A model generated the notes under the pieces. The model was given only the letters and a program-made list of their open reading frames with translations. It searched no databases and was not told the DNA's origin. The translations under genes were made by a program, and so were the position numbers. A DNA stretch of 64,000 nt from a virus: positions 1 through 64,000 of the IMG/VR virus record IMGVR_UViG_3300044977_000123. One strand, given 5' to 3'. Within the stretch, counting starts at the first letter, position 1, and every line of letters starts with the position of its first letter. This document shows, piece after piece, positions 5,088-61,162 of the stretch.

Positions 5088-6077
5088 GTGAGCACAGATC
5101 AGCAGGAGGCGCGCGTCGCCACCGGGAGCGTCCCGCACGCCTTCCGGATGGCCGTGGCCTGGCACTGGGCAAAGGAGATGCCGCGGTCTCTGCGCGGCGG
5201 GTTCCTCACCCTGCTGTACGCCCTGGCGGCCCTGGCCGACTCAACCGGCCGGCTGCGGTTCGCCCGCGACGGCAAGCCCATCCGGATCAGCGACATCGCC
5301 GAGGCGTCCGGCTGCGATGAGAAGGACTGCCGCCGGTACCTGCTGGCCGCCGAAGCAGCCGGCGTCGTCCTTGTTGAAGGCGAACGGCGGCGCGGCAGGA
5401 CGACGCTCTACATCATCCTCGTCACGCCTGTGCCCGACTGGGGCGCGTCCGTCGCATCGCTCGACAGCACCCGCCGCAAGCCCCGGACACCTCCCCCGTG
5501 GGTCGCGGAGAAGAGGACGGAGAACGGGGGACTCACCCCGGAACTTTCGGGCGACGAGTTCCGGGGACTCACCCCGGAACTTTGGGACCAGTCCGAGAAA
5601 GAAGTTCCGGGGACTCACCCCCGACCGAGTTCCGGGGACTCACCCCGGAATGGTTCGGGGGACTCACCCCGGAACAACCCAGGAAGTACCCAAGAGCTAC
5701 CCCACGAGACGGCTGAGGTTGTCACCCAACCTCAGGAGGTAGCGGCCCCCGCAGTCGACAAGACCGATCCCGATGGCGAAGACAAGCCAGACGCCATCCC
5801 GGACGGCTTCGTGCGCTGCACGAAATGCCACGAGCGCATGGTCCCCCGCCGAGGCCAAGCCGCCCACGTCCACGCCCACTGCGATCCCCAGTCCCCCAAG
5901 AACCGGAAGGCCAAGACATGGACCAGCACGACGACAACGACGAACTCATCAGCCAACTCGGAGACGGACTCCAGGACGTCCTCGACGGATACGACGAGGA
6001 CTCGGCCCCCGCAGGAGTTCCCACCGGATTCCGGGGCCTCGACGCCATCACCAACGGACTCCGCCCCGGCAGCCTGA
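5088..6077 (+). CDS. phage replication initiator (lambda O-like organisation, N-terminal wHTH)
   Basis: LLYALAALAD...ISDIAEASGCDEKDCRRYL HTH; internal iterons; directly before a DnaB-like gene; 3' end uncertain (overlaps next gene by 160 nt). Confidence 0.75.
   Translation: MSTDQQEARVATGSVPHAFRMAVAWHWAKEMPRSLRGGFLTLLYALAALADSTGRLRFARDGKPIRISDIAEASGCDEKDCRRYLLAAEAAGVVLVEGERRRGRTTLYIILVTPVPDWGASVASLDSTRRKPRTPPPWVAEKRTENGGLTPELSGDEFRGLTPELWDQSEKEVPGTHPRPSSGDSPRNGSGDSPRNNPGSTQELPHETAEVVTQPQEVAAPAVDKTDPDGEDKPDAIPDGFVRCTKCHERMVPRRGQAAHVHAHCDPQSPKNRKAKTWTSTTTTTNSSANSETDSRTSSTDTTRTRPPQEFPPDSGASTPSPTDSAPAA
5527..5670. repeat. five iterons GGGGACTCACCCC (putative origin 1)
   Basis: copies at 5527, 5563, 5609, 5634, 5658; fullest form GTTCCGGGG-ACTCA-CCCCGGAAC. 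Confidence 0.85.
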
Positions 6078-6883
6078 CCGTCATCGCCTCGCGCCCCGGC
6101 CTCGGCCGCACCACGCTCCTCAGCGACATCTGCCGCCGCAACGCCATCGCCGACAGGCGCCCGGTAGCCGTATGGACACTCGAAGAGACCCGAGGCGACT
6201 TCGCCACCCGACTCCTCGGCGCAGAAGCCCGAGTCCCCCTGCACCACATCCGCAGCGCCCGCATGGACACCGACAGCTGGGAACGGCTCGCCAAGACGCT
6301 GCCCGGCCTGATGGACGCGCCGATCTACATCGGCGACCCGGCCGCCATCACCATGCCCGAACTCGCCGAGCAGGCAACCAGGCTCGTGGAGCAGCACGGC
6401 GTCCAACTGCTGGCAGTCGACGGAATCCAGGACATCCGCCCCGAGAAGCGCAGCGACCTGCGTGAACGGGAAGTCGGCGACGTCGTCCGCGACCTCAAGA
6501 CCCTCGCCCGCCAGTTGAGCGTTCCCGTCCTCGCCACCTCGCACCTCAACCGAGGACCCGAGCAGCGGTCCGACCACCGCCCGGAGATCGACGATCTCCG
6601 CGAGTCGGGGGCGATCACCTACGCGGCCGACACGATCATCCTGCTCCACCGCCCGGACGCCTACGAACGCGATTCGCCCCGCGCCGGCGAGGCCGACCTG
6701 ATCGTCGCCCGGAACAGGCACAACCCAACCTGCGTCAGCACCGTCGCCTACCAAGCGCATTACGGGCGCTTCATCGACATGGCCGAGGACTGGCAGCGCG
6801 AGGAGCCGCAGACCCCGACCTTCGACCTCCTCCAGATGTTCGGCGAGCAGCCTCCAAGCGGCGCCGACAGGCCGAGCCAATGA
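5918..6883 (+). CDS. DnaB-like helicase, C-terminal domain only, atypical Walker motifs
   Basis: GVPTGF..LD, ASRPGLGRTT, LKTLARQL, SHLNRGPE, DLRESGAI..AD, ARNRH. Confidence 0.85.
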   Translation: MDQHDDNDELISQLGDGLQDVLDGYDEDSAPAGVPTGFRGLDAITNGLRPGSLTVIASRPGLGRTTLLSDICRRNAIADRRPVAVWTLEETRGDFATRLLGAEARVPLHHIRSARMDTDSWERLAKTLPGLMDAPIYIGDPAAITMPELAEQATRLVEQHGVQLLAVDGIQDIRPEKRSDLREREVGDVVRDLKTLARQLSVPVLATSHLNRGPEQRSDHRPEIDDLRESGAITYAADTIILLHRPDAYERDSPRAGEADLIVARNRHNPTCVSTVAYQAHYGRFIDMAEDWQREEPQTPTFDLLQMFGEQPPSGADRPSQ

Positions 6884-34853: not shown

Positions 34854-35651
34854 TCAGCCACGACCAGCCGCGACCATCGCCGCGACCGCGATCCAGCCCT
34901 TGTGCCACGACTGATCGAGCAGGTATCCGGCGCCCGGGTCCCGCTTCAGCCAGCCCCGATGCCCAGTCACCGCAGCCAGCTGGACGACGCCGCGCGGATG
35001 CTCGTCGCGCCAGTGGCCGCCCTGCCGGTCGGCGACGTAGTGCGTGACCGCAGAGACGGCGAGAGCAGCAGCTGCTCGGCGCGGGCTCAGGTTGAGACCG
35101 AGCAGCCGGTCGGCAGCCAGGAGCGCGAGGTCCTCGCGCGGCCCGTAGTCGCAGACGATCCGGTTCGCCGGGTAGATCGCCTCAGCAAGGTAGGTCAGCT
35201 GCGGGTCGAGCCGGCTGAGGTCTGCGGCGTCGAGCCACTGCTGTGCCCAGTCCGCCTGCTCGCTGATGAACGAGCCCTTGGATGCGGCGTGCCAGCGGCC
35301 GTCGTAGTGGAACACGATGATCAGAGAGCCGTCGGCCTTGTCGAACACCTCGAACGGCTCGGCCGGGAGCGGCGGCGCGAAGTCGTGGACGCCGTGCATC
35401 GCCGTCACGAAGATCTTCGGGAACGGGAACGCCACGATCCCGCCCGTGACGTCGTCGGCTATGAGGCCCCGGCAGGCCATGGTGACCGGCGTCCAGATGT
35501 GCCCGTACTGGCAGTCCCGGGTGTACGTGAAGATCGACAGCGGCAGGTCGGGGTGGGACTTGCGGGTGACGTGGCCGGCCTCAATCGCTGCAGCCAAGTC
35601 ATCGGGCGGGAACAGGTCGGCCAAGGTCAAGCCGGTCGTCGCGGTGGTCAC
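34854..35651 (-). pseudogene. chimera: N-terminal part of a T4 Rnl1-like RNA ligase fused in frame to a DUF3307-like C-terminus
   Basis: CRGLI, FPKIF, KADGS, ASKGSF, EAIYPANRIV; then THYVADR...LDQSWH; ligase motifs IV/V absent. Confidence 0.7.
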
Positions 35652-35790
35652 GGGGTGCTCCTTGAAGGTTGAGCAGCGCAGGATTGATCGGGACGGGCAG
35701 GGCTCATGCGCTGAGCGGATCAGAATCGGCGGATCGATGATGCAGGCGTATGAGTCATGGTGCACCCCCGGGCGGGGAGATCGGGCGGGG

Positions 35791-37777: not shown

Positions 37778-39169
37778 CTATGCGGCGGCGCCCGGCGTCC
37801 AGGACGTCGCGAGGCTCCGCAGGCGGCCGAACCGACCTTGGAACGACAGCCAGATCTCCTTGCCCTGCCCGCCGTTGCGGTTCTTGCCGACGATCAGCAG
37901 CACCTTCCCCGCGGTCGGGCCGGTGTCGGAGCCGTCCGCCGCCAGTTCGCGGTGCAGCAGCACGATGACCGAGGCGTCCTGCTCGATCTGCGATGAGTCC
38001 TTGAAGTCCGTGACCAGCGGCTGCCGCCCGACGGCTCCGCGGTTGAACTGGGCGAGGGCGACCACGGGCACGTCGAACTCGTGCGCCAGGCGCTTCAGGC
38101 CGCGCGAGATCCCCGCGACCTCCTGCGTCCGGTTCCCGCCCGCGCTGCCGCCAGGGCTCGGCGAGATGAGCTGCAGGTAGTCGACCAGGACCATGCCCGG
38201 CGGTGTGCCCTGGCCGTGCATCCACCGCACCCGCGCCCGGATCTTCTCGACCGTCAGCGACGGCGAGTCGTCGAGGATGAAGTTGTGGGCGCCGCGCATC
38301 ACCGCATCGACGCGGGCGATCTTGTCCCAGTCGTCGTCGGTGACCTGTCGCCGCACCAGGTGGCTGAGTTCGACACCGGCCTCGGCGGCAGTCAGCCGGG
38401 CGAGGAGTTCCCGGCGGCCCATCTCCAGTGAAGCCACCAGAACGGGCAGGCCCTTCTTGAGTGCGATGTGCGCGGCGAGGTTCATGGCGAACAGCGACTT
38501 GCCGCCGCCCGTCCCGGCGCCGACGACCGTGAGCTCCTTGGGCTTGAACTGCACAACCTCGTTGAGGTCAGGCCACGGCGAGTCGAGGGCGCGCGGATCC
38601 TCCTTTGCGGACAGCTCGTCGATGAACGGCTCCCACTCGTCCGCGACGGACATGGTCTGCGTATCGCCGCCGGCTGCGTCGGCGAGGAGTGCTTGCAGTT
38701 CGCCGAGGGCGGCGTCGAGGACCTCTTCGGGCTCGGCTTCCTTGGCGCGGGCCATTGACGCGAGGCGCTCGCCGATCTCGGTGAGGCGGCGCAGCGTGTA
38801 CTTGCTGCGGACGATGTCGGCATACCACTGGGCGTTCGCGGCGGTCGGAACGTTGTGGACGAGGGTGTGCAGGTAGCCGGGGCCGCCGCAGCGGACGAGG
38901 TCGCCTTGCTTCTCCAGCGCCTTGGCGACGGTGATCGGGTCGGGCTGCTCGCCGCCGGGGGCACCGTGGAGGCTGAGGATCGCCTGGTGGATGAGTCCGT
39001 GGGCACCCCGGTAGTAGTGCTCGGGCTTGAGGATCTCGTCGGCGTCGCTGATGGCGCTGTCGGAGATGAGCATCGCGCCGAGGACGGCCTGCTCGGCGGC
39101 GAGATCGGTGGGGTACGTCGGCTCGGCCGGCTCGGTCTCGTCGTCGTACGGGTCTTCGTGCTGGGTCAT
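37778..39169 (-). CDS. dnaB: replicative DNA helicase, full length
   Basis: AEQAVLGAML N-domain, GAGTGGGKS, SLEM, VDYLQL, LAQFNR, IEQDA, KNRNG. Confidence 0.92.
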   Translation of the reverse strand: MTQHEDPYDDETEPAEPTYPTDLAAEQAVLGAMLISDSAISDADEILKPEHYYRGAHGLIHQAILSLHGAPGGEQPDPITVAKALEKQGDLVRCGGPGYLHTLVHNVPTAANAQWYADIVRSKYTLRRLTEIGERLASMARAKEAEPEEVLDAALGELQALLADAAGGDTQTMSVADEWEPFIDELSAKEDPRALDSPWPDLNEVVQFKPKELTVVGAGTGGGKSLFAMNLAAHIALKKGLPVLVASLEMGRRELLARLTAAEAGVELSHLVRRQVTDDDWDKIARVDAVMRGAHNFILDDSPSLTVEKIRARVRWMHGQGTPPGMVLVDYLQLISPSPGGSAGGNRTQEVAGISRGLKRLAHEFDVPVVALAQFNRGAVGRQPLVTDFKDSSQIEQDASVIVLLHRELAADGSDTGPTAGKVLLIVGKNRNGGQGKEIWLSFQGRFGRLRSLATSWTPGAAA

Positions 39170-40005
39170 GCGGCGTCCTGATAGTCGGGGTGGCAGTGGC
39201 AGGGCTGCGCGAGGGAGAAGCCGTTGGCGTCGGTGACGTCGCGGGTGCGGGTGTCGGGGTCGCAGTCGCGGTCGCCGCACCAGTCGGGCAGGCTGGGAGA
39301 GGCCCGTTGCCGGTCGTCGGCCTGCTTGGCGCGCCAGGTCTGAGCGAGCTCGGGCATGTCGTCGGCTGCGGCACGCCAGAACGCGGGGGTGCGGACCTTG
39401 CACTCGGCGGTGACCCAGGCGATGAACGCCGGTTCGTCGTCCAGGGGGACGACGCCTCGCACGGCTTTCTGGGCGGCAGTGAGTCGGGTGGTGGTTTTGC
39501 TCGCGTCAGCGATGGTCTCTCTCTCGGCGACTGGAGCGGCGGACTGGCCGTCGGCCGGGAGAGGAGAGGTACTTGAGGAGCAAAGAGGAGTAGGGGTCAT
39601 CTGTTGGATGAAGAATCCGGCCGATTCCTCATCTGATGGATGAAGGGTCGTGTTCGATGCTTCATCTGTTGGGTGAAGAATCTCGTCGGCCACTTCGGGA
39701 TCTTCATCTGATGGATGAAGAATCTTGGGGTCCATCACGGGGATGCGGTACCGCGCGGACCTGCCCTTGACGCCTGCCTCGACGACCTCCAGGACACCCT
39801 TGCGGATCAGCGCGCTGCGCAGGTTCGACCAAGCCGGGACGCTCAGGCGCACGCGCCGCAAGATCTCCGGGTCGTTGATCTTCGAGAAGGTGAGACGCGT
39901 CTTCTCGTTCGCGTCCCGCGCCAGGACGATCAGTCCCTTCCACTCCCCCGCCGTGAGGGTGTCCGGGGCATGGTCCATCACCTCTTCGACCAGCTTGATG
40001 CCCAT
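39166..40005 (-). CDS. replication initiator 2 (phage-type)
   Basis: N-terminal wHTH-like region, internal iterons, LPDWCG..CD..TR...PC.CHP C-terminus; coupled to dnaB. Confidence 0.75.
   Translation of the reverse strand: MGIKLVEEVMDHAPDTLTAGEWKGLIVLARDANEKTRLTFSKINDPEILRRVRLSVPAWSNLRSALIRKGVLEVVEAGVKGRSARYRIPVMDPKILHPSDEDPEVADEILHPTDEASNTTLHPSDEESAGFFIQQMTPTPLCSSSTSPLPADGQSAAPVAERETIADASKTTTRLTAAQKAVRGVVPLDDEPAFIAWVTAECKVRTPAFWRAAADDMPELAQTWRAKQADDRQRASPSLPDWCGDRDCDPDTRTRDVTDANGFSLAQPCHCHPDYQDAA
39597..39720. repeat. four iterons TCATCTGWTGGRTGAAG (putative origin 2)
   Basis: copies at 39597, 39629, 39662, 39704. Confidence 0.85.
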
Positions 40006-40103: not shown

Positions 40104-40331
40104 CTAGCCGTCGGCCTCGGCGAGCGGGTCGGTCATGTAGGCGTCGACGTCCCGGCGCCGGTAGCGCACCGGAGCCCGGATGCCTTTGCCGAGCTTCACG
40201 TAGGGGATGCCGACCTTCTTGTAGCGGTGGTCGGCGAGGGTCTGTGGCTTGAGCCGCGTGATCACGGAGACCTCTTTGGCCGTGAGTAGGTCCTCCGGGT
40301 CTCCGACCAGCTGCGTTGATTCTGTAATCAC
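40104..40331 (-). CDS. excisionase/AlpA-like HTH protein
   Basis: LLTAKEVS..TRL..QTL...R....GIPYVKLG...VRYRRRDV. Confidence 0.8.
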   Translation of the reverse strand: MITESTQLVGDPEDLLTAKEVSVITRLKPQTLADHRYKKVGIPYVKLGKGIRAPVRYRRRDVDAYMTDPLAEADG

Positions 40332-40434
40332 GCGCTTCCTTTCAAAACGTGAGTGCTTCGATGTTAGAAGTATATACGGCAAAGTAGGCCCGTGTCGTTG
40401 GTTGCAGACCTAGATCGCGTGAGAGGCTGCCGCC
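40332..40434. promoter_or_regulatory. AT-rich divergent switch region
   Basis: AT-rich spacer between the Xis-like and XRE genes. Confidence 0.6.
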
Positions 40435-40962
40435 ATGGCAGCGGACGAACCGACGAACAAGCGAAGGGCCAACCAGCTCGGCCCCACAGGGCAAGCAGTC
40501 GCCGTCAACGTCGCCAGAATCCGCGTAGCCCTCGGCCTGTCGACCTACAAGCTGTCCGAGCGGCTCACCAACCTCGGCCGGCCCATCGCAGCCTCCGCGA
40601 TCAGCAAGATCGAGGGCGGCACCCGCCGCGTCGACGCCGACGACCTCATGGCCCTCGCTGTCGCCCTCGACGTCCCGCCGTCGGCGCTCCTCCTGGAGCC
40701 AGTCAGCGAAGGCCCGCTGGTCCTACTCGACGACTACGAGGACATGGCGGCCGTGGTGTGGGACTGGGCAGAGGGCAAAGGGCCTCTTCGTCTGCCCGAG
40801 GACGACGACGGCGAATACTGGAATGCCTGGCAGTCCCGTGCCAAACCGGCGGGTCGGCGGGAATTCCGGGTGACGGCCCGGGCCGAAGCGAAGGCCACCA
40901 CTATCGCCACAGAAGTGCTGGACAGGCTCGCGAAGCACCGGTCGCGCCGCCCCGCCGAGTAG
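40435..40962 (+). CDS. XRE-family repressor
   Basis: NVARIR...GLS..KLS......ISKIEGGTRRVDADDLMALAVALDV. Confidence 0.85.
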   Translation: MAADEPTNKRRANQLGPTGQAVAVNVARIRVALGLSTYKLSERLTNLGRPIAASAISKIEGGTRRVDADDLMALAVALDVPPSALLLEPVSEGPLVLLDDYEDMAAVVWDWAEGKGPLRLPEDDDGEYWNAWQSRAKPAGRREFRVTARAEAKATTIATEVLDRLAKHRSRRPAE

Positions 40963-41016: not shown

Positions 41017-42396
41017 TCAGCCGGCGATGGCCAGCTCGGTGCGTGTGCGGTGAAGGAGGTCCTGGACGGGGATCTCGGCCTTCCAGCGCCTCAGGGCGGC
41101 GGTGTAGTCCCGCACATAGTCCAGGGCGCGCGTGGACTGCACCCGCGACAGGATGTCGACGGCCCGATGCCCCATGTCCAGCCCCTCGTCGAGACGTCCG
41201 GCCTGCAGGTGCGCGGAGCCTACGATAGCGAACCGCATCCCCACCGACCGCGTGAAAACATCGGCCGACATGGTGGCCGCACGGTCGTTCCAAGCAAGCG
41301 CCTCGGCAGGCCGGTGCAGGTCGCGGAACACCTCGGTCGTGTCGGCGGACATTCGGGCATGGGTCATGTAGCTGATCCACGCGGGCTCACCGTCGGGATG
41401 CTCCTCGGCCCGATCCAGCAGCTGCTCGCACTGCGCGACCGCTTTCGCCGCCGCGCGGGCGTCGCCGGCCCGGCCATGCGCACGGGCCTCGATCAGCCGC
41501 GTGAACGCCAGTACACGCGGTGCCGCCGTCCCCTGCGCCCGCTCGTAGGCGCCCTGGGCCATGTCAACAGCCTCCGCCGCATAGCCGCGCAACAGAGTCT
41601 GCAGCGCCATCGTCGTCAGGACATAGCCGCCCAGCTCCACATTCCCGCCAGCCCGCGCCAGAGCCAGGGCCTGGATGAAATGCCGCTGGGCGACATCGTG
41701 ATGGCCGACGTCCACAGCTGACCAGGCCGCCATCCGGGACAGCTCCGCGGTCACCGCGAACAGTTCCCCGCCGATGTCGTCGCTGTACGAGCCGTGGAGC
41801 AGCGGCGCGGCTCGGCGCTGCAGGCAGTCGGTGATCGCGCTGGCCTTCCAGTTCCCGCCGCCGTACTTGGAGTCCCAGGCGCGGGCGTCGTCCGCTGCCT
41901 GCCACAGCTCGTCGAGGTCTGCGCGGCCCACGCGGGCCCCGTCGCGGCGGGCAGTGGCTGCGGCGGCCGGCGTGACGAGCCAGCGGGTGACGGGGGTGGT
42001 GAAGGCGGCGATGGCGAAGGTCTGGCCGAGGAGTTGACGGCGGTTCACGGCGCTCCAGAAGGTGCAGGCGACGCGGACGGCGTCGGCGGGGTCCCTGGAG
42101 AAACTCAACCCCATGTCGGTGCTCGCAGCGGGGAGGCTGACCATGCCGATTTCGGTGACGGTGACCGGCCGGGAGAGTCGTTCACTGAGCGCGACGGCGA
42201 TCAGCGACGGTACCGGGTGGCGCGGCACCATGCCGTAATCCGCCCAGTTGGTGACACTCGTGTACGTGTAGCGCAGGGTCAGGCCCTGCCGCCGGCCGAG
42301 GTGGTTGACCTGCTGGGCCAGCCATGTGCGGCTGGTCTTGCTGGCCTCCAGGAGGCGCTGTAGATCCTGGTTGGGTCCTCGTTGTGCTCGTGCCAT
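41017..42396 (-). CDS. HTH-TPR transcriptional regulator (NsdA-like)
   Basis: GPN..L..LL, LA..VN, LRY...SV..W, SKYGGG, AELSRMAAW.A.D.G....AQRHF.QAL.LA. Confidence 0.85.
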   Translation of the reverse strand: MARAQRGPNQDLQRLLEASKTSRTWLAQQVNHLGRRQGLTLRYTYTSVTNWADYGMVPRHPVPSLIAVALSERLSRPVTVTEIGMVSLPAASTDMGLSFSRDPADAVRVACTFWSAVNRRQLLGQTFAIAAFTTPVTRWLVTPAAAATARRDGARVGRADLDELWQAADDARAWDSKYGGGNWKASAITDCLQRRAAPLLHGSYSDDIGGELFAVTAELSRMAAWSAVDVGHHDVAQRHFIQALALARAGGNVELGGYVLTTMALQTLLRGYAAEAVDMAQGAYERAQGTAAPRVLAFTRLIEARAHGRAGDARAAAKAVAQCEQLLDRAEEHPDGEPAWISYMTHARMSADTTEVFRDLHRPAEALAWNDRAATMSADVFTRSVGMRFAIVGSAHLQAGRLDEGLDMGHRAVDILSRVQSTRALDYVRDYTAALRRWKAEIPVQDLLHRTRTELAIAG

Positions 42397-42594
42397 TGCC
42401 GACCTCCGGGGCCGCACTTTCGGGCTACCGAGCGTAGGCCAATCCGTGGGCGCGCGTGCGGGGTCTGCGAGGAGTTTGCCCCCGTGTTTGCGTGTCCCCA
42501 GGTTACGGGTCGGCGGTTTCCTGATGGTCCGACCGGCTCCCGTACCGTGCTCCAGCCGGCCGCCTCACATCACTTCCAGAGGAGATCACGGCTG

Positions 42595-43599
42595 ATGGAA
42601 AACGTACTGGTCACGGGTGGTGCCGGGTTCATCGGCTCGCACTTCGTCAAGCAGCTGCTGCGAGCCGACGACGTCGCCACCGTGACGGTCCTCGACGCCC
42701 TCACCTACGCCGGACACATCCACAACCTCGGCGAGGCCTTCCTGTCGCCGAAGCTCGCCTTCGTCGAGGGCAACATCCTTGACCGGCCGCTCGTCGAGCA
42801 GCTCGTCGCCCGGCACGACAGCGTGGTGCACTTCGCCGCCGAGTCCCACGTCGACCGCAGCTTCTACGCGGCAGGGACGTTCCTCGCCACCAACGTGCTC
42901 GGCACCCAGGTCCTCCTGGACGCGGCCCAGCGCCACGGCGTCGAGCGCTTCGTCCACGTCTCCACCGACGAGGTCTACGGCCCGCTCCTCACCGGGTCGG
43001 CCGCCGAGGACGCCCCGCTGCGCCCCTCCGTGCCGTACGCCGCATCCAAGGCCGCCTCCGACCTGATCGCACTGTCGTACTGGCAGACCTACGGCGTGCC
43101 GGTGTGCGTCACCCGCTCGTCCAACAACTACGGGCCGAACCAGCACCCCGAGAAAATCATCCCGCTGTTCGCGACACGGCTCCTCAAAGGCGAGCCCGTC
43201 ACCCTCCACGGCCAGGGCCAGCACATCAGGAACTGGGTGCACGTCACCGACAACTGCGCCGGCATCGAACTCGTCCTGCGCGACGGCATCCCCGGCGAGG
43301 CCTACAACCTGGGCGGCGGCACCGATCTGACGAGCCGCGAACTCACCGCGCTGATCCTCGACGCCTGCGGAGCCGACTGGGACCAGGTGACCTACATCCC
43401 GGACCGGCCCGCGAACGACGTGCGCTACTCCATGGACTGGTGCAAAGCCGCCGCTCTCGGCTACAAGCCAACCCAGGACCTGCAGGAGGGGCTGGCGCAG
43501 ACCGTGGAGTGGTACCGCGCGCACCCGGACCGTTGGGCGCCCCAACTGCGCAAGCCCGGCGCACAGCTCCAGCTGTCCGCTCCGACCCCAGGAAGGTGA
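42595..43599 (+). CDS. rmlB: dTDP-glucose 4,6-dehydratase
   Basis: TGGAGFIGS, DALTYAG, HFAAESHVDRS, STDEVYG, YAASK, SNNYGP.QHPEK. Confidence 0.93.
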   Translation: MENVLVTGGAGFIGSHFVKQLLRADDVATVTVLDALTYAGHIHNLGEAFLSPKLAFVEGNILDRPLVEQLVARHDSVVHFAAESHVDRSFYAAGTFLATNVLGTQVLLDAAQRHGVERFVHVSTDEVYGPLLTGSAAEDAPLRPSVPYAASKAASDLIALSYWQTYGVPVCVTRSSNNYGPNQHPEKIIPLFATRLLKGEPVTLHGQGQHIRNWVHVTDNCAGIELVLRDGIPGEAYNLGGGTDLTSRELTALILDACGADWDQVTYIPDRPANDVRYSMDWCKAAALGYKPTQDLQEGLAQTVEWYRAHPDRWAPQLRKPGAQLQLSAPTPGR

Positions 43600-43604
43600 C
43601 GACG

Positions 43605-44741
43605 ATGAACGCAGCAACCAGTCAGGCAGCCGTCAACGCCAAGCCCTTCATCCACGGCCCGGAGGCCGATGCGGTGGCCGCAGTGCTGGCCGAGGGCCAG
43701 TACGGGCACAGTCGGGAGACGGAACGGTTCGAGCAGGAGCTCGCCCGGTTCCTCCAGGTGCCCGACGTCGTCGCGGTGACCTCGGGCACCGACGCCCTCC
43801 ACATCGCGCTCCTCGCGGCAGGCGTCCGGCCGGGCGACGAGGTCGTCGTGCCCTCGATGACGTTCTGTGCGAGCGTGCAGGCGATCCTGATGTGCGGCGC
43901 GGTCCCGCGCTTCGCCGACGTCGACCCCGACGCCCTGTGCGTGACCTCCCGCACCGTCACCGAGGCGATCACCCCGGCCACCAGGGCGGTCATGCCCGTG
44001 CTGTACGGCGGTCGCGCCGTTGACTTGGGCGACATCGCCGACACCCTGACCGACCGGGGCATCGTGATCGTCGAGGACGCCGCGCAAGCGTTCGGCTCCC
44101 GCTGCGGCCCCGTGCGGGTCGGCGGCCGCCCGCAGGTGACGACGTGCTTCAGCTTCGGCCCGATCAAGCAGCTCACCTGCGGCCAGGGCGGCGCGATCGT
44201 GCCCCGCACCGAGCAGGAGGCGGCTACGGTCCGGAGCCTGCGCCTGCTCGGCATTGTCCAGCCCCAGGGCGAACGCCTGCGGACCACGACCTACACGGTC
44301 GAGCAGGCTGGCCTGCGGGCCCCACTGTCCGGCATCAACGCGGCGATCGGCCGCGTCCAGCTGGCCCGGTTCGCGGAGCTGGAGGCCAAGCGCAGGAACC
44401 TGTGGCGCGCCTACGCTGCCCGACTGACCGAGGTGGACGGCGTCGCCCTGGTGGACGTGGACATCGACCGCACGGTGCCGTTCAACTGCGTGGTCCGCGT
44501 CCCGGACCGCGACACCGTCTTCGGGTACATGCGCGACCGGGGCATCGGCGTCGGGGTCCACTACCCGCCGAACCACCTGCAGCCCGCATTCGCCCGCTGG
44601 CACCGGCCCCTGCCCGTGACCGAGACCATCGCCGAGGAGATCATGAGCCTGCCGTTCCACCCCGCCATGGACGAGACCGACACCCAGTCGGTGGTCTCGG
44701 CACTCGCCGACGCACTGCACCACACCGGGGCCGGCCGATGA
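43605..44741 (+). CDS. DegT/DnrJ/EryC1/StrS sugar aminotransferase
   Basis: SGTDALH, EDAAQAFG, FSFGPIKQL..GQGG (PLP Lys), GVHYPP, SLPFHP. Confidence 0.92.
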   Translation: MNAATSQAAVNAKPFIHGPEADAVAAVLAEGQYGHSRETERFEQELARFLQVPDVVAVTSGTDALHIALLAAGVRPGDEVVVPSMTFCASVQAILMCGAVPRFADVDPDALCVTSRTVTEAITPATRAVMPVLYGGRAVDLGDIADTLTDRGIVIVEDAAQAFGSRCGPVRVGGRPQVTTCFSFGPIKQLTCGQGGAIVPRTEQEAATVRSLRLLGIVQPQGERLRTTTYTVEQAGLRAPLSGINAAIGRVQLARFAELEAKRRNLWRAYAARLTEVDGVALVDVDIDRTVPFNCVVRVPDRDTVFGYMRDRGIGVGVHYPPNHLQPAFARWHRPLPVTETIAEEIMSLPFHPAMDETDTQSVVSALADALHHTGAGR

Positions 44742-45379
44742 GACTCGCAGCCGTACTCGGCAAAGGCACCCTCGCAGCCCACGCCTGCGACGTCATCGCC
44801 GCAATGCCCGACACCGTCCTGGACACCGTGGTCCCGAGCGCAGACGAGCCCGACTGGGACATGCGCCTGTCCGACCACGTGGCCGCACGCTGGCCCGACA
44901 TCCGCATCGTGCACTCCGGGGACTGGCGCGAACTGGAGCCGGGTCGCTGCGGCTTGGTGTTCAGCGTCCTGTACGACCGGATCATCGGCCGCAGCCTCAT
45001 CGACGCCACCGAGCAGATCATCAACTGTCACCCGGGCCGACTGCCCCAGTACCGGGGCGCTCGCCCCGTGAACTGGGCGCTGCACAACGGCGAGCAGCTG
45101 CACGGCATCACGATCCACTCCATCGACCCCGGCATCGACTCCGGGCCGGTCCTCGCCGAAGCCCTGTTCTCGATCTGGCCGGACATCGACGAGGTCCAGG
45201 ATGTGTGGCAGCGGTCCATGGAGCACGGACGGCTCCTCATCTCGGACACGCTGCCCAGGCTCGACCGCATCGTGCCCCGCCCCCAGGACGGGACGCAGGC
45301 CGTAACCCACTACATGCGGGACAACGGCCTGCTCGGCGACCGCAGCGACTGGACCAGGTCCCTCTCCACCGGCCGCTGA
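44738..45379 (+). CDS. N10-formyl-THF-dependent (sugar) N-formyltransferase
   Basis: INCHPGRLPQYRG..P, GITIH.ID.GIDSG. Confidence 0.88.
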   Translation: MRLAAVLGKGTLAAHACDVIAAMPDTVLDTVVPSADEPDWDMRLSDHVAARWPDIRIVHSGDWRELEPGRCGLVFSVLYDRIIGRSLIDATEQIINCHPGRLPQYRGARPVNWALHNGEQLHGITIHSIDPGIDSGPVLAEALFSIWPDIDEVQDVWQRSMEHGRLLISDTLPRLDRIVPRPQDGTQAVTHYMRDNGLLGDRSDWTRSLSTGR

Positions 45380-45386
45380 CTGATCC

Positions 45387-46553
45387 TCACCGGATTGCGG
45401 CGTCCAGCAGGACATCGACGAGCCGGTCCGCCGCATCGGGCCGCCCCTGCGACCGAGCCCGCTCCGCCATGACGGTGCGGCGCTCCGGCTCGGCCAGCAG
45501 CGGCGCCAGTGCAGCCCGCAGGACGTCCCCGTTCACCTCCCCGAGCAGCGCGATCGCAGCGCCTGCCCGGTGGAGGTGCTCCGCGTTGTGGGTCTGCTCG
45601 TTGCCCGCAGAGCTGGCGAGGGGAATCAGGACGGCGGCCTTGCCGAGCGCGGTCAGTTCGGCGATCGTGCCCGCACCGCTGCGCGACACCACCACATCGG
45701 CCAGCGCCAGGACATCAGGGAGCTCCGGGCCGACATAGCCCGTGAGCAGGTACCGCGACGCCAGGCCCGGCGCCAGGCTGCTTGTGCGGTCGCGCAGGCC
45801 GGCCAGGTTGCCCGGCCCGCACTGGTGGACGACATTCGCCTGTGCGAGGAGCCACGGCAGGATGCTGCTCACGAGCGTGTTGATCTGCTGCGACCCCTGG
45901 GCGCCACCAGTGACGTAGACCGTAGGCAGCGACAGGTTGAACCCGTACAGGCCCAATGCCTCGACCGCCTTGCCGGGCCGGCCGGTGAAGACCTCCGGCC
46001 GCACCGGGTTCCCCGTGACGACTGCGCTGGCGCGTACGGACTCCGTGAGCAGCGCCAGTGTCGACTCGGAGGAGACCGCGACTCTGGTGGCGACACGCGT
46101 CAGTGCCCGGTTCGCCAGACCCAGGCGGACAGTCTGCTCGTGAATGACGAGCGGCACCCGGCACATCCTTGCGGCCAGCCCGATCGGGACGGCAACGTAC
46201 CCGCCGGTGGCGAGTATGACGTCCGGCTTGAACGCGGCGACGATCGAGCGGGCCTGGGCGACACCCAGCGGCACCCGGCCCATGTCCTTGACGTTCGCTG
46301 GCGAGGCGAGCTTCAGTGGGTTGCTGGACCGTCGGATCTTGCCCGTGGCGACCGGGGCGAAGCGGATGCCCTCTGCTGCGGCGACGCGGGACTCCAGGCT
46401 GTTGGCGACGCCCACCCATAGGACGTCCACGGGCCTGCCTTCGGCGGCGAGTCGGCCTTGGAGGGCTCGTACGGCTGTGAGTGCCGGGTAGGTGTGGCCG
46501 CCGGTGCCGCCGCCGGTGACGATCAAGCGGAAGGTCCGCGAGTCAAGGTTCAC
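45387..46553 (-). CDS. MurG-like GT28 glycosyltransferase
   Basis: TGGGTGGH.YP, GGYV, HEQ, TGNPVR, GGAQGS..IN, SRSGAGTIAEL, EQ.HNA. Confidence 0.88.
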   Translation of the reverse strand: MNLDSRTFRLIVTGGGTGGHTYPALTAVRALQGRLAAEGRPVDVLWVGVANSLESRVAAAEGIRFAPVATGKIRRSSNPLKLASPANVKDMGRVPLGVAQARSIVAAFKPDVILATGGYVAVPIGLAARMCRVPLVIHEQTVRLGLANRALTRVATRVAVSSESTLALLTESVRASAVVTGNPVRPEVFTGRPGKAVEALGLYGFNLSLPTVYVTGGAQGSQQINTLVSSILPWLLAQANVVHQCGPGNLAGLRDRTSSLAPGLASRYLLTGYVGPELPDVLALADVVVSRSGAGTIAELTALGKAAVLIPLASSAGNEQTHNAEHLHRAGAAIALLGEVNGDVLRAALAPLLAEPERRTVMAERARSQGRPDAADRLVDVLLDAAIR

Positions 46554-51133: not shown

Positions 51134-53242
51134 ATGGCCGTCGACCGTATCGTCCGTCCGTCCGCAGGCGCGGACGAAGACCTGGAGGTCCCCGGCTTCC
51201 TCCAGTCCGGCCGTGCCTCGCAGGCGATCGTCGGGGAGCTCGTCCGTCCGGACCGTCCGGCGTTCGACGCGGACGACGACGACATCGCTCCGGGCCTCAT
51301 CGAGTACTACCGTCCGCGTCCGCCGGTCCTGTCGCGGGCCGCGTCGGCGACGCTGGTGGCGGCCAGGGCGACGGGTCGCGGTGTCGGCTGGTCGGCCCGG
51401 CACGGCTGGCTCGTGGCCCGCTGGTTCGGTCACGGTGCGCGAGCGACCGCCGTACTGGGTCACCGGTACGTTCGGGCGCACGACCACATCGAGGCCCTCG
51501 GCGGTATGAACGGCCCTGCGTGGCGGAAGATCCTCGACACGCGGGCACGGCGCTGGAAGTTCCTCAGCTACGGCGCCGGCGGACTGGCGGCGGCGGACCT
51601 CGCCTCGTGGTGGGCCCTTGTGCGCTACGAGCACTTCGACGTCTTCCCCGGGCTCGCCGTCGCGCCCGCCGTCGAGGCCCTCGCCGCCGCCGGCCTGCTG
51701 ACCGTCTACGGCCGCTACCGGCTCGCGGCAAGGCTCGGGCCGACGCAGGTCGTGGACCCTGCGGACCTCGCGGAGGCTGACCCCGACGACCCGTTCCCGA
51801 TCGGCCACGCAACCACCTTCGACCAGGCCGCCGAGTGCCTATCGCGCGCGTTCCACGCCGAAGGCATCGAGACCCGGGACATCAGCGTCACCACCCGCCC
51901 GGCCTGGGGCTGGGAGCTCAAAGTCCTCCTCAAGGGCTGCACCCCGGCAAAGGTCGTTGCTGCGGCCGACAACCTCGAAGCACACATGGATCTGCCCGCG
52001 GGCGGGTTCATGCCGGAGCCGCACACCGCGAACCGGTCGAGGCTGACGGTGCGCCTGGTGGAGCGGGACCCGTTCGCGGACATGCCCCGGCCTGCCGTGC
52101 ACGCCCCGCGGTCCCTGTCGGTGCATGACCTGACGATCCTGGGTCGGGCGATGGACGGCGGCGACCTCGCGCTGTCGTTCGACGGATTCTGTGCGCTGGT
52201 GATCGGCGCGATGGGCGCAGGGAAGACGCTCGGGGCGCTGCGGACGTTCGCCGAGGCGCTGACCGCGTGCCGGGACGCCGTGTGCTGGGACTTGGACCCG
52301 CTGAAGGGCGGCCTCGGCGAGTTCGGCGACCTTATGGCGCTGCGGGCCCGCGGCCCCGAGGAGTGCGACGCAGCCCTGCTCAAGGCCCTGGCGTACGTGG
52401 AGGCCCGCGCGAAGGTCATCCGGGAGATCGGCATGGGAGACCGCTGGGTCGCGACCGAGGAGCACCCGGACCTGTACGTGTTCGTCGACGAGTACCTGCA
52501 GCTGTCCCCGAAGGGCAAGCAGACCGCAATTCAGGTTCTGCGCACGGGACGCCAGTACGGCATCTACCTGGTCATCGCGGGCCAGGAGGCCACCGAGGAC
52601 GCCTTGGGTGACGCCATCGCCTCGCTCATCGCCTACCGCATCCTGATGCCCTGCCGCTTCGAGGACATCAAGATTTGCTTCGGCGTCGGCAAGGGCGCGC
52701 TGGGCTGGCGGCCGGACCGCATGGAGCCCGCGGTTGGCCAGGTCGTCAACGACGCCGGCCAGAGCTTCATCATGGGCGGCCTGTTCACCCGGGCGATCCG
52801 CTACCGGTACTTCGCCTACTCCCCCGAGCAGATCGCCTCCGCGATTCCCGGGCGCATCGAGGCCGGGATGCCGCAGATGGATGCGGACACGCTGCGCGCT
52901 GCCGGGGAGGACGTGCCGACTGGCGGCCGGGTGCCCACGCTCGCCGACCGCCTCGATGCAACGGGCACTGTCGACGGGCAGCTGCTGGCGTGCGTGCTGG
53001 ACCTGTACAGCAAGCACCGCGCCGAGTTCGTGCCGACGCGCCTGATCCTCGCGCAGCTCGACGGCGCACCCGGCTGGGACCCGGGCGCGGCCCCGGGCCG
53101 GAGCCTGGGCCTGCTGATCTCCCGTCACGCGCTGGACGCGACCTCGTCGAAGGGCCAGTGGGGCGAGGAGCGGGATGTCCGCGGCTGGACCCTGAAATGG
53201 ATCCGGGCGGCGGCCGAGGATCTGCTCCGCGACCCGCCGTAG
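51134..53242 (+). CDS. traB: TraB-type FtsK/SpoIIIE conjugative DNA translocase
   Basis: TM segments, Walker A GAMGAGKT, DPLKG, VFVDE, GRQYGI...AGQ, C-terminal wHTH-like (VRGW). Confidence 0.85.
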   Translation: MAVDRIVRPSAGADEDLEVPGFLQSGRASQAIVGELVRPDRPAFDADDDDIAPGLIEYYRPRPPVLSRAASATLVAARATGRGVGWSARHGWLVARWFGHGARATAVLGHRYVRAHDHIEALGGMNGPAWRKILDTRARRWKFLSYGAGGLAAADLASWWALVRYEHFDVFPGLAVAPAVEALAAAGLLTVYGRYRLAARLGPTQVVDPADLAEADPDDPFPIGHATTFDQAAECLSRAFHAEGIETRDISVTTRPAWGWELKVLLKGCTPAKVVAAADNLEAHMDLPAGGFMPEPHTANRSRLTVRLVERDPFADMPRPAVHAPRSLSVHDLTILGRAMDGGDLALSFDGFCALVIGAMGAGKTLGALRTFAEALTACRDAVCWDLDPLKGGLGEFGDLMALRARGPEECDAALLKALAYVEARAKVIREIGMGDRWVATEEHPDLYVFVDEYLQLSPKGKQTAIQVLRTGRQYGIYLVIAGQEATEDALGDAIASLIAYRILMPCRFEDIKICFGVGKGALGWRPDRMEPAVGQVVNDAGQSFIMGGLFTRAIRYRYFAYSPEQIASAIPGRIEAGMPQMDADTLRAAGEDVPTGGRVPTLADRLDATGTVDGQLLACVLDLYSKHRAEFVPTRLILAQLDGAPGWDPGAAPGRSLGLLISRHALDATSSKGQWGEERDVRGWTLKWIRAAAEDLLRDPP

Positions 53243-59461: not shown

Positions 59462-61162
59462 TTGTCCCGCTTCAACACCCGGACCGCCCGTCCGTCCGGC
59501 ATATCGCCCGTGACCACGACCGGGCAGACCGTCACCACCCACGAGGGCGGCACCGGCTTCCTCCGCGACGAGAAGAGCGAGCTGTTCCTCCTCGCGGTGG
59601 CGAACTTCGTCGGCCAGGACACCTTCTACGAGCAGGGCGGCCAGCGCGACGACCGCTACACCCAGCTCGTCCGGCAGCTCGCCGTCGCCGACCCTGAGTG
59701 GACCGCTGGACTGCTCGGCTGGCTCCGCGCCGACGGCAACATGCGCACCGCATCGCTCGTCGGCGCGGCCGAGTACGTCAAGGCCCGTCTCGACGCCGCA
59801 GGCAGCCGCGAGCGCCGCATCCACGAGCAGGGGGCCGACAAGGCCGCGACCGTATGGTCCGGCGACAGCCTCGACTACTCCGCCGCCGCGAACCGTCGCG
59901 TCATCGCCTCCGTCCTGCAGCGCCCGGACGAGCCCGGCGAGCTGCTGGCCTACTGGACGTCCCGCTACGGCCGGAACCTCCCGAAGCCCGTGAAGCGCGG
60001 TGTCGCCGACGCTGTCCAGCGGCTGTACAACGAGAGGAGCCTCCTCAAGTACGACACCGACTCGAAGGGCTACCGGTTCGGCGACGTCCTCGAGCTCGTC
60101 CACGCCTCGCCCGCAAAGCCCTACCAGCACGACCTGTTCAAGCACGCCATCGACCGGCGCCATAAGCGCGACAACCCGATCCCCGACGGGCTGCGGATCG
60201 TTCGCAGCCGCGAGGAGCTCTTCAGCCTGCCCGTCAAGGCCCGGCGCGCCGTACTGGAGTCGGCGCAGGGCATGGAGCGGCTCGCGGACGCTGGTGTCAA
60301 CTGGGAGGCACTGGCGGGCTGGCTCCAGGGCCCGATGGACCAGGAGGCGTGGAAGGCAGTCATCCCGTCCATGGGCTACATGGCGCTCCTGCGGAACCTG
60401 AGGAACTTCGACCAGGCCGGCGTGTCCGACAGCGTCGCGCAGCAGGTCGCAGCGAAGCTCGCCGACCCGGAGCAGGTCGCCCGCTCCCGGCAACTGCCGA
60501 TGCGGTTCTACTCGGCGTACCGGGCTGCGCCGTCGCTGCGCTGGTCATGGGCGCTGGAGCAGGCGCTCGGGCATTCGCTCGCGAACATCAACCGGCTGCC
60601 CGGCCGGACCCTGGTCCTGGTCGACACGTCCGGGTCGATGCACGCCGGGTTCAGCAAGGACGGCACGGTGATGCGCTGGGACGCGGCGGTCGTGTTCGGG
60701 ATCGCCCTCGGGTACCGGTGCGCGCAGGCCGATGTGGTGTCGTTCTCCGACGCCGGCTACGGCTACGGCTGGAATTCGCGCGGCAACAGCGACGCGAGCC
60801 GACCGTTCGCGCTCACGCCCGGAGGCTCGGTCCTCGCGGAGGTCAAGCGCTGGAACGACGACGGCTACTTCATCGGCGGCGGCACCGACACTGCTGGCGC
60901 GGTCCAGCGGCACTTCGCCGGGCACGACCGGGTCGTGATCCTCACCGATGAGCAGGCCAACAGCAACGGCTCCGTCGACCGGGCGGTCCCGGCGAACGTG
61001 CCGATGTACACCTGGAACCTCGCGGGTTACCGGGCTGGCCACGCGCCGTCCGGGAGTCGCAACCGGCACACGTTCGGCGGGCTCACCGATGCGGCCTTCC
61101 GCATGGTGCCGCTGCTGGAGGCTGGGGCGAACGCCACCTGGCCCTGGCTCCAGTCCGCCTGA
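59462..61162 (+). CDS. rsr: Ro60/Rsr TROVE-vWA RNA-binding protein
   Basis: TTG start with RBS; TFYE, GNMR, YMALLRNLRN, SRQLPMRF, LVDTSGSM, GGTD, ILTDEQ. Confidence 0.92.
   Translation: MSRFNTRTARPSGISPVTTTGQTVTTHEGGTGFLRDEKSELFLLAVANFVGQDTFYEQGGQRDDRYTQLVRQLAVADPEWTAGLLGWLRADGNMRTASLVGAAEYVKARLDAAGSRERRIHEQGADKAATVWSGDSLDYSAAANRRVIASVLQRPDEPGELLAYWTSRYGRNLPKPVKRGVADAVQRLYNERSLLKYDTDSKGYRFGDVLELVHASPAKPYQHDLFKHAIDRRHKRDNPIPDGLRIVRSREELFSLPVKARRAVLESAQGMERLADAGVNWEALAGWLQGPMDQEAWKAVIPSMGYMALLRNLRNFDQAGVSDSVAQQVAAKLADPEQVARSRQLPMRFYSAYRAAPSLRWSWALEQALGHSLANINRLPGRTLVLVDTSGSMHAGFSKDGTVMRWDAAVVFGIALGYRCAQADVVSFSDAGYGYGWNSRGNSDASRPFALTPGGSVLAEVKRWNDDGYFIGGGTDTAGAVQRHFAGHDRVVILTDEQANSNGSVDRAVPANVPMYTWNLAGYRAGHAPSGSRNRHTFGGLTDAAFRMVPLLEAGANATWPWLQSA

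Follow-up and report, generated by a model that had tools for sequence, protein, structure and literature searches.

Positions 41017-46553 of the first 64 kb of the 123,222-bp virus record IMGVR_UViG_3300044977_000123 (these 64 kb are called the window below) hold a compact unit in which an operon predicted to make a dTDP-amino sugar lies tail to tail with a glycosyltransferase (GT) of family GT28. We find that this sugar operon, traced through actinobacterial genomes, plasmids and viral contigs, occurs essentially only beside a GT of the MglA type and that the link is one-way, the GT being often found without the operon. We propose, with a probability of roughly 0.4, that the five genes of the unit form a mobile cell-wall-precursor module, the MglA-type GT of which would make lipid II and would also take an N-acyl amino sugar as a second donor.

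In 2021 MglA became the first enzyme described that can stand in for MurG, the lipid II synthase that is otherwise universal (PMC8092295); it acts as a back-up for the last cytoplasmic step in making cell-wall precursors. To this we add a phage-borne orthologue of MglA, the observation that about a quarter of MglA-carrying genomes (34/141) join MglA to a dTDP-amino-sugar operon, and the existence of this operon in three N-acyl versions, essentially only beside an MglA-type enzyme. The strict one-way coupling of a three-variant operon to MglA, together with its carriage by a phage, appears to be undescribed in the literature searched. An earlier reading of this DNA, called here the original prediction, had described a formamido-sugar cassette with its own MurG paralogue and knew of no characterised system with such a layout; our literature search likewise found no description of the cassette, and the interpretation as a whole is partly supported by the results below.

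Layout of the cassette

The features of the unit are as follows.

41017..42417, minus strand: NsdA-family regulator with a part resembling tetratricopeptide repeats (TPR), 466 aa (NF053720, 363.1 bits, cut-off 75)
42418..42594, no strand: spacer between the divergent regulator and rmlB genes, presumed from its position to hold promoter and operator
42595..43599, plus strand: RmlB, 334 aa, or 350 aa from the alternative start 42547 (TIGR01181; 1r66)
43605..44741, plus strand: DegT/DnrJ/EryC1 aminotransferase, 378 aa, alternative start 43596 (PF01041, 306.9 bits)
44738..45379, plus strand: short N-formyltransferase, 213 aa (PF00551, 69 bits)
45387..46553, minus strand: MglA-type GT28 glycosyltransferase, 388 aa (PF03033 and PF04101)

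Genes were called by their third-position G+C, because DNA of such high G+C is full of spurious open reading frames (ORFs). By these calls and by family matches the interval contains exactly five genes, all present and apparently intact, as had been predicted. The regulator is divergent from rmlB, the formyltransferase start overlaps the DegT stop by 4 bp, and the GT is encoded on the strand opposite to the sugar genes, tail to tail with the formyltransferase gene, the two stop codons being 7 bp apart. No terminator or inverted repeat was predicted between these convergent genes (45379-45387); transcripts of the two units should overlap, and interference between their expression could follow. 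In the regulator-rmlB spacer we found one weak inverted repeat (42499-42509 / 42539-42549, 82% complementary) and no sigma-70-like site in 42418-42594, the only promoter-like site predicted being in the region of the two small regulatory genes to the left of the cassette.

The sugar operon is found essentially only beside MglA-type glycosyltransferases

A census made with an alignment of 20 members of the GT clade gave 5 viral and 80 genomic loci, the latter being the best of 515 tblastn-positive stretches. Two plasmid loci (L001 and L002) and three own-genome loci (L003-L005) were left out of the 85-locus counts; L133 is a duplicate of L033. Searched by tblastn with the window proteins, 29/85 loci carry a cassette-type DegT gene (56-63% identical) next to the GT. 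The genes of 86 loci (the 85 and the window) were then clustered; 4 have no GT gene call and are absent from the tree, leaving 82 for use. The context of the GT is a formyltransferase in 4/82 loci, an ATP-grasp protein of type 1 in 11, an ATP-grasp protein of type 2 (408 aa, with an L-amino-acid-ligase C-terminal domain) in 9, other sugar genes in 9, and a low-molecular-weight (LMW) phosphotyrosine phosphatase only in 6. No recurrent neighbour was found in the other 43, called 'solitary', although in seven loci the sequence downstream of the GT is shorter than 5 kb, so that 5 of the 43 calls are uncertain. The remaining recurrent neighbour families are generic: response regulators, short-chain dehydrogenases/reductases, ABC ATPases and WhiJ-like DUF5753 proteins. 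A GT-clade member is present on 6 plasmids, and Streptomyces plasmids are annotated with the same cassette layout in which an ATP-grasp gene replaces that of the formyltransferase.

The association was also counted in both directions among 401 evenly drawn Streptomycetaceae genomes, with a threshold of at least 59% identity for the cassette-type DegT. This DegT is present in 36/401 genomes and the GT clade in 141/401; 34 genomes hold both (odds ratio 41, Fisher p 6.6e-15). In the two DegT-positive exceptions (G192 and G244), a partial GT match lies beside the DegT gene (loci L125 and L123). When loci were collected with DegT as the query, the GT was adjacent in 29/30, the remaining one (L110) being cut by a contig end. 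These 30 loci divide by acylation type into 11 with a formyltransferase, 10 with ATP-grasp type 1 and 9 with ATP-grasp type 2; RmlB, DegT and GT are common to all three variants. The arrangement predicted from the window is far beyond chance; its genes recur together in 29/85 and in 29/30 loci. A lack of co-occurrence elsewhere, which the original prediction had named first among the results that would tell against it, is therefore not what was observed.

The median gap from the GT stop to the last sugar gene is 13-33 bp (7 bp in the window). Two loci depart from this order in a particular way: in L139 and L140 (which also appear as L101 and L102), the opposite-strand GT gene is inserted between those of DegT and the formyltransferase, and it is their RmlB (82-84%) and DegT (76%) that are closest to the window's. 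In two others (L067 and L073) all cassette genes are co-directional. The tail-to-tail junction persists while the genes are merely 56-84% identical, and the arrangement is therefore old. Most copies are chromosomal or plasmid-borne, not phage-borne. For instance, a site between polA (DNA polymerase I) and the gene of an hrpB-type helicase holds the formyltransferase cassette in four Streptomycetaceae chromosomes (L033/L133, L134, L135 and L136), where it is flanked by genes for a GNAT protein, a DUF3103 protein and WhiJ-like proteins (DUF5753, HATPase_c_2 protein).

We rejected the possibility that the cassette is a fragment of an antibiotic or polysaccharide cluster, an outcome that would have told against the original prediction: no such neighbours recur, and no polyketide synthase, nonribosomal peptide synthetase or polysaccharide cluster was seen in 13 formyltransferase-type loci. 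Nor does another GT, an exporter or a second target gene recur in the clustered cassette loci.

In the six loci of the phosphatase context (L029, L044, L046, L069, L082 and L089), the GT gene is tail to tail with that of the LMW phosphotyrosine phosphatase, with no RmlB, DegT or ATP-grasp gene. The two genes are either what is left of the ATP-grasp type 1 cassette or partners that function on their own.

The glycosyltransferase is an orthologue of MglA

Both GT28 domains of the window GT score above cut-off (PF03033, 102.4 bits; PF04101, 108.6 bits). The protein gives 231.3 bits against TIGR01133, the model of canonical MurG, below its cut-off of 250.25. In three large genomes, copies of the type found in the dcw (division and cell wall) cluster reach 287-296 bits with this model and the clade copies 239-247 bits; the window GT is 30.8-31.7% identical to the dcw-type MurG of these genomes and 72-75% identical to their second copy. 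The best 120 of 7010 GT relatives share 73-79% identity; they come from actinomycetes, Streptomyces and Kitasatospora among them, and most bear the annotation MurG. The clade is mobile, with identities of 69-79% across several actinobacterial families (members were also found in Streptosporangiales, Pseudonocardia, Nocardiopsis and Cryptosporangium), and lies outside the dcw cluster, since no FtsW or MurC family was found among the neighbours of the 82 GT loci. That the window gene could be a chromosomal murG was rejected: 3/3 genomes checked hold a separate copy over the cut-off.

MglA of Kitasatospora viridifaciens, first called MurG2, is described as an alternative lipid II synthase; its identity to MurG is 31.2%, its gene lies outside the dcw cluster, and 38% of strains have it; alone it supports wild-type peptidoglycan and muropeptides, and it permits depletion of murG in S. 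coelicolor (PMC8092295, mBio 2021). Orthology was assessed with the mglA deletion primers printed in that paper. Read as protein, the gene-specific portions of these primers give MRLIVT (at the start codon) and DRLVDVL (at +1105), and the window GT has RLIVT at residues 9-13 and DRLVDVL at 376-382, that is, at a constant offset of 7. Three canonical MurG proteins carry neither MRLIVT nor DRLVDVL. A length of 381 aa for MglA can be derived from the name of a +1146 primer in the preprint, and the 388-aa window GT has 7 extra N-terminal residues. At the DNA level, the exact primer patterns were found in 0/140 loci; with fuzzy matching, the mglA primers fit many clade genes at both their 5' and 3' ends. 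The closest fit is a Kitasatospora locus, L064 (2 and 3 mismatches, with a third primer just upstream), and the flank primers P1 and P4 have no match in the loci. From the two short peptides and the collinearity, as distinct from a full alignment, we take the orthology of the window GT to MglA as established.

The two proteins thus share both GT28 domains, about 31% identity to the dcw MurG, a location outside the dcw cluster, a collinear length and the primer peptides. Their prevalence is also close, with the clade in 141/401 Streptomycetaceae genomes here against the 38% of strains published (PMC8092295). They differ in that the window gene is phage-borne and stands tail to tail with a dTDP-amino-sugar operon having its own regulator. 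The words aminotransferase, dehydratase and synteny have no occurrence in the MglA preprint, where such neighbours are not mentioned. The original prediction had ascribed to the GT a MurG (GT28) character, which holds for both domains and the glycine-rich loops (G-loops), and had called it the element's own MurG paralogue; as an orthologue of MglA, it is not an uncharacterised one. The window GT may itself be able to replace MurG, an ability published for the K. viridifaciens orthologue alone (PMC8092295).

MurG-like genes other than these are also present in the family. TIGR01133 gives 627 matches at E <= 1e-30 in the 401 genomes, and about 190 of the genomes hold at least two MurG-like genes, more than the 141 with the MglA-type clade; therefore other MurG-like clades exist.

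The plus-strand genes predict a formamido-sugar pathway

In its 350-aa form, RmlB scores 363.4 bits against TIGR01181, 1.7 bits short of the cut-off of 365.1, and its best solved relative is the TDP-glucose 4,6-dehydratase 1r66 (E 1e-105). The GGAGFIGS, STDE and YAASK segments align with the same residues in 1r66; in such enzymes GxxGxxG serves NAD binding, and the Thr-Asp-Glu and Tyr-x-x-x-Lys motifs are catalytic. RmlB is 66-84% identical among cassette loci. The aminotransferase matches PF01041 over its full length (profile positions 7-359 of 360) and is 56-76% identical among these loci; among its relatives in the PDB are WbpE, ArnB and DesV-type enzymes, and both C3- and C4-aminating kinds are represented. 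Amination at C4 would be the simplest reading because no 3,4-ketoisomerase is present.

The formyltransferase consists of the catalytic core alone and lacks a further C-terminal domain. In 13 other loci there are homologues with 68-77% identity, and Asn96, His98 and Asp134 are invariant in the 13 homologues that were aligned. An AlphaFold model (pLDDT 82) has the full core fold and superposes on the formyltransferase domain of ArnA with TM scores of 0.73-0.77. The protein scores 35.6 bits against NF005755, the equivalog of dTDP-4-amino-sugar formyltransferases, below the cut-off of 238, and it is from gene context alone that a dTDP-4-amino sugar is suggested as its substrate. The family assignments support the identities and the route that had been predicted, and the plus-strand genes would together lead to a dTDP-formamido-dideoxyhexose.

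The divergent regulator belongs to the NsdA family

The match of the regulator to NF053720 covers profile positions 2-432 of 432. It stays below the equivalog cut-offs of NsdA (160.9 against 830) and NsdB (117.9 against 700), indicating that the protein is neither of these. The original prediction had called it an 'HTH-TPR' regulator; the TPR-like part is borne out by NF053720, and the helix-turn-helix (HTH) part is not, as no Pfam HTH family matches the window protein. A positional homologue in L131 does score with HTH_3 and HTH_31. The AlphaFold model of the regulator (pLDDT 82) has a confident four-helix N-terminal bundle (17-81), a disordered linker and a superhelix of TPR-like helical repeats; a fold search with this model returned weak TPR matches alone (E 3e-3 and weaker). 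Where flanks are available, 9/12 other formyltransferase-type loci have a homologue (24-60% identity) near rmlB, and in one more an unlabelled 394-aa gene occupies the regulator's place.

Possible use of the sugar as a second donor

The mechanism that we propose, at the probability stated above, runs as follows. The operon would convert host dTDP-glucose to a dTDP-4-formamido-4,6-dideoxyhexose. The donor site of the MglA-type GT, roomy and tolerant, would admit this dTDP sugar besides UDP-N-acetylglucosamine (UDP-GlcNAc), and the GT would place the sugar on an undecaprenyl-diphosphate-linked precursor, most simply lipid I. The NsdA-like regulator would set when the sugar branch is on. The outcome would be a wall change controlled by the element, with the peptidoglycan precursor modified or capped, and the benefit in a lysogen could be the exclusion of other phages or resistance to wall-directed attack. 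The GT would be a back-up lipid II synthase in its own right, and the operon an add-on.

A nucleotide-sugar pathway needs a transferase, and a pathway kept beside one GT usually marks a pathway together with its transferase. Many actinomycete GT-B enzymes accept both UDP and dTDP donors, and acyl diversification of the kind seen in the three cassette variants is typical of surface sugars, as in the Qui4N derivatives of O-antigens. On its acceptor side the clade is MurG-like, with conserved GGGTGGH and TGGY loops. On the donor side, three residues are smaller than those of E. coli MurG, namely Thr141 (Asn128), Ala218 (Ser192) and Gly295 (Leu265). All three are invariant in 71 clade members, and three canonical Streptomycetaceae MurG proteins have N, S and M at these places. 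Asn128, Ser192 and Leu265 of E. coli are listed as binding-site residues (PMC10966019).

Several observations weigh against this proposal. The GT clade retains the equivalents of MurG His19, Arg164, Glu269 and Gln289, which are named for catalysis and UDP-GlcNAc binding (PMC10966019, PMC8554846), and the orthologue MglA works with GlcNAc (PMC8092295); the clade plainly appears to use UDP-GlcNAc. No cassette is present at L064, the locus with the closest fit to the mglA primers. In the MurG:UDP-GlcNAc structure, Glu269 reportedly binds the hydroxyls of the ribose, from which a preference for UDP rather than dTDP would follow. Most carriers of the GT (107/141 genomes) are without the cassette-type DegT, and in five large genomes whose GT is solitary no DegT exceeds 40% identity. 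On the GT tree of 82 members, 36 changes are required to explain the context labels; shuffled labels gave a mean of 39.9, and 6/200 shuffles reached 36 or fewer. No alignment column splits the 33 sugar-linked from the 38 solitary GTs, the largest frequency difference (0.39) being a V/I change. The GT is also the same in the formyl and aminoacyl variants, which would be odd if the acyl group occupied its pocket. Finally, most loci have the operon and the GT as separate convergent units, and no terminator was predicted in between. Since 107/141 carriers lack DegT and the sequence is alike in both contexts, the GT does not need the formamido sugar. The original prediction had counted against itself a GT that uses only UDP-GlcNAc and complements murG; of these two properties, replacement of murG is published for the orthologue (PMC8092295).

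A more specific form of donor use, which we think unlikely, is that the GT and the operon build an analogue of lipid II in which GlcNAc is replaced by a 4-N-acyl-4-amino-4,6-dideoxyhexose. When peptidoglycan is polymerised, incoming lipid II receives the growing chain on the 4-hydroxyl of its GlcNAc. The analogue could not accept the growing glycan chain because its sugar has no 4-hydroxyl, and it would therefore only start strands or, if abundant, stall synthesis. If this were true, mobile elements would control strand initiation or cap strand ends with three chemical 'serotypes' (formyl and two of aminoacyl type), and MglA would gain a second physiological donor; the purpose could be the exclusion of rival phages, resistance to lytic enzymes, or growth arrest.

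Alternative explanations

A different account, doubtful in our view but the main rival of the one above, is that the GT makes ordinary lipid II only, from UDP-GlcNAc. The dTDP sugar would then either be used by a host transferase, which would put it onto a wall glycopolymer or a protein, or interfere, as a soluble analogue of nucleotide sugars, with an enzyme of the host (canonical MurG, for example), the MglA-type GT being the insensitive bypass. The published function of MglA (PMC8092295), joined to the orthology found here, agrees with such an account. So does the one-way pattern (34/36 DegT genomes with the GT, 107/141 GT genomes without DegT): by the logic of toxin and immunity, or of self-resistance, that the second option follows, the sugar genes should never occur without the GT, and the GT should often occur alone. 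The likeness of GT sequences in every context and the separation of GT and operon into convergent units, the latter with its own regulator, fit equally, and the three clade-invariant changes of the donor site could as well be changes to insensitivity. On the other side, the GT is adjacent in 29/30 loci and even interleaved with the operon in two of them (L139 and L140), as one usually sees for a pathway with its transferase. Use by a host transferase would not call for adjacency to the GT, and the recurrent cassette genes include none for an exporter or a second target. Nor do we know of any dTDP-sugar that acts as an inhibitor in vivo.

If the GT does use the sugar as a donor, this could be a new modification of a peptidoglycan precursor under the control of mobile elements; if such use is refuted, the pair could reveal a bypass or immunity arrangement around an essential wall step. 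Either outcome bears on the conflict of phage and host and on the wall-deficient lifestyles of antibiotic-producing actinomycetes.

We consider it very unlikely that the NsdA-like TPR regulator senses the sugar, or a compound derived from it, as a small-molecule signal that steers lysis, lysogeny or development. A signalling role is suggested by the NsdA-family gene near rmlB, both in the window and in the nine of 12 other formyltransferase-type loci, by the description of this family, in its NCBIfam name and reportedly in the NsdA papers, as differentiation regulators, and by the modelled helical repeat domain, which is large and could bind a ligand or a partner. It is opposed by the regulator being the least conserved part of the cassette (24-60% identity against 56-84% for the enzymes), by its absence beside the cassette in L134, L135 and L137 and, at the threshold used, in most ATP-grasp type 1 loci. 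Three acyl groups would moreover demand three ligand specificities, and the strict link to the GT would be left unexplained.

Decoration of phage DNA, of a virion protein or of a diffusible natural product has very little to recommend it. The cassette does sit in a phage, phages are known to glycosylate their own DNA, and the GT-B fold is common to DNA glucosyltransferases; but most copies lie in chromosomes or plasmids (between polA and hrpB in four genomes), no GT-clade member is found in 50,697 deposited phage records, the GT retains the MurG acceptor loops and is an MglA orthologue, and no aglycone pathway is nearby. Mere hitch-hiking of the operon and an mglA-like gene on one small island, without functional link, is scarcely credible and already disfavoured: the GT is often solitary and the units are convergently transcribed, but their tail-to-tail junction, with its short median gaps, persists over three variants and over chromosomes, plasmids and phages, and the odds ratio of co-occurrence is 41.

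Comparison with known systems

The window GT shares with canonical MurG (E. coli, 1f0k and 1nlm) the fold family, both G-loops and the equivalents of His19, Arg164, Glu269, Gln289 and Asn292, and by orthology to MglA it probably carries out the same reaction with UDP-GlcNAc. It differs from canonical MurG by its score below the equivalog cut-off, an identity of about 31%, a mobile location outside the dcw cluster, and the Thr/Ala/Gly replacements.

The sugar genes resemble the pathways of Rv3404c (M. tuberculosis, dTDP-Qui4N), FdtF, WlaRD and WbkC in the order RmlB, aminotransferase and formyltransferase dependent on N10-formyl-tetrahydrofolate, and in the Asn-His-Asp triad. The modelled window formyltransferase superposes on these four enzymes with TM scores of 0.64-0.74 (normalised to the query), but it is only 20-25% identical to them and has no extra C-terminal domain. 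Known N-formyltransferase pathways feed O-antigens or unknown mycobacterial glycans, whereas the partner here is a MurG-like GT28 enzyme and not a GT of O-antigen or glycolipid synthesis.

There is a further likeness to lysogenic conversion by prophages, in that a temperate phage carries, beside its regulatory region, sugar genes that are dispensable for the virion and that draw on host precursors. Known conversion systems act with GtrABC-type or GT2/GT-A enzymes on O-antigen or teichoic acid. In the present case, the sole transferase found is a paralogue of the lipid II synthase, and chromosomes and plasmids carry the cassette more often than phages do. A last parallel is offered by murG-like genes linked to vanHAX in Actinobacteria, where an extra MurG-like gene is likewise tied to a mobile wall-remodelling operon and its role is stated as unknown (PMC8698665). 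No van genes are present at the window cassette.

The carrier phage and the flanks of the cassette

The record is classed as linear in IMG/VR and is 92% complete by CheckV. Its phage genes include those of a large terminase, a portal, a tape measure, a tail fibre and a DNA methyltransferase, in line with the phage-type setting that had been predicted. A serine recombinase with a Resolvase domain (record 107451-107897, inside a 505-aa ORF) makes lysogeny plausible; family searches of the 123-kb record found no tyrosine integrase and no ParB. The carrier is probably a temperate actinophage. The G+C content is about 70% across the window, and its GC profile has no compositional break at the cassette.

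The NTP_transferase (RmlA), Glycos_transf_2 and Glycos_transf_1 families have 0 matches each on the whole record, flippase and polymerase families not having been searched by name. The GT28 protein is thus the sole transferase found with the families searched. Because no NTP_transferase was found, the phage must take dTDP-glucose from its host. Both the lack of RmlA and the dependence on host dTDP-glucose agree with the original prediction.

Among deposited phages, DNA searches with the cassette and with the adjoining 16 kb gave nothing relevant. In the protein search of the 50,697 records, all GT matches were at or below 36% identity, and the records concerned look like bacterial fragments or carry canonical MurG. 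Viral contigs gave no match when scanned with the single GT protein and 5 loci when scanned with the GT-clade alignment; one of the IMG/VR contigs (L007) has the same GT and a portal 50% identical to that of the window phage.

Two small regulatory genes adjoin the cassette on its left.

40104..40331, minus strand: small HTH_17 gene (excisionase/MerR-like), divergent from the XRE gene (Pfam HTH_17, 29.4 bits on ORF 40104-40382)
40435..40962, plus strand: XRE-family HTH protein, 175 aa, convergent with the NsdA-like gene (Pfam HTH_3, 24.7 bits)

The XRE gene is present where the original prediction had placed a repressor. By tblastn it was found in 0/85 related loci, and no homologue of the HTH_17 gene adjoins the cassette in other loci; both genes are context only, outside the conserved cassette.

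Other genes of the window

Two genes for DnaB-type helicases are present in the window (5918-6883, plus strand, and 37778-39169, minus strand); one encodes a 321-aa protein with the DnaB_C domain only, and the other a full-length replicative helicase (TIGR00665, 307.6 bits, cut-off 385). A tRNA-SeC (anticodon TCA) called by ARAGORN at 39629-39719 on the plus strand lies inside the well-supported ORF 39166-40005 on the minus strand, is absent from the Rfam scan, and is probably a false call.

The 702-aa protein encoded at 51134-53242 on the plus strand has weak matches to plasmid TraB (28.9 bits) and to the FtsK-like ATPase EccC, and no Pfam match. On plasmid pSGZL (L002), a related cassette lies just upstream of genes for an 'ATP/GTP-binding protein' and for replication-relaxation.

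At 59462-61162 on the plus strand, a 566-aa protein with a TROVE domain (53.6 bits) weakly matches the Ro-like RNA-binding protein Rsr; at gathering thresholds, an Rfam scan of the window gave neither Y RNA nor any other family. The minus-strand gene at 34854-35765 encodes 303 aa and has a T4-type RNA ligase domain (34.2 bits). The RNA ligase and the Ro-like protein hint at a theme of RNA repair or tRNA defence in this phage.

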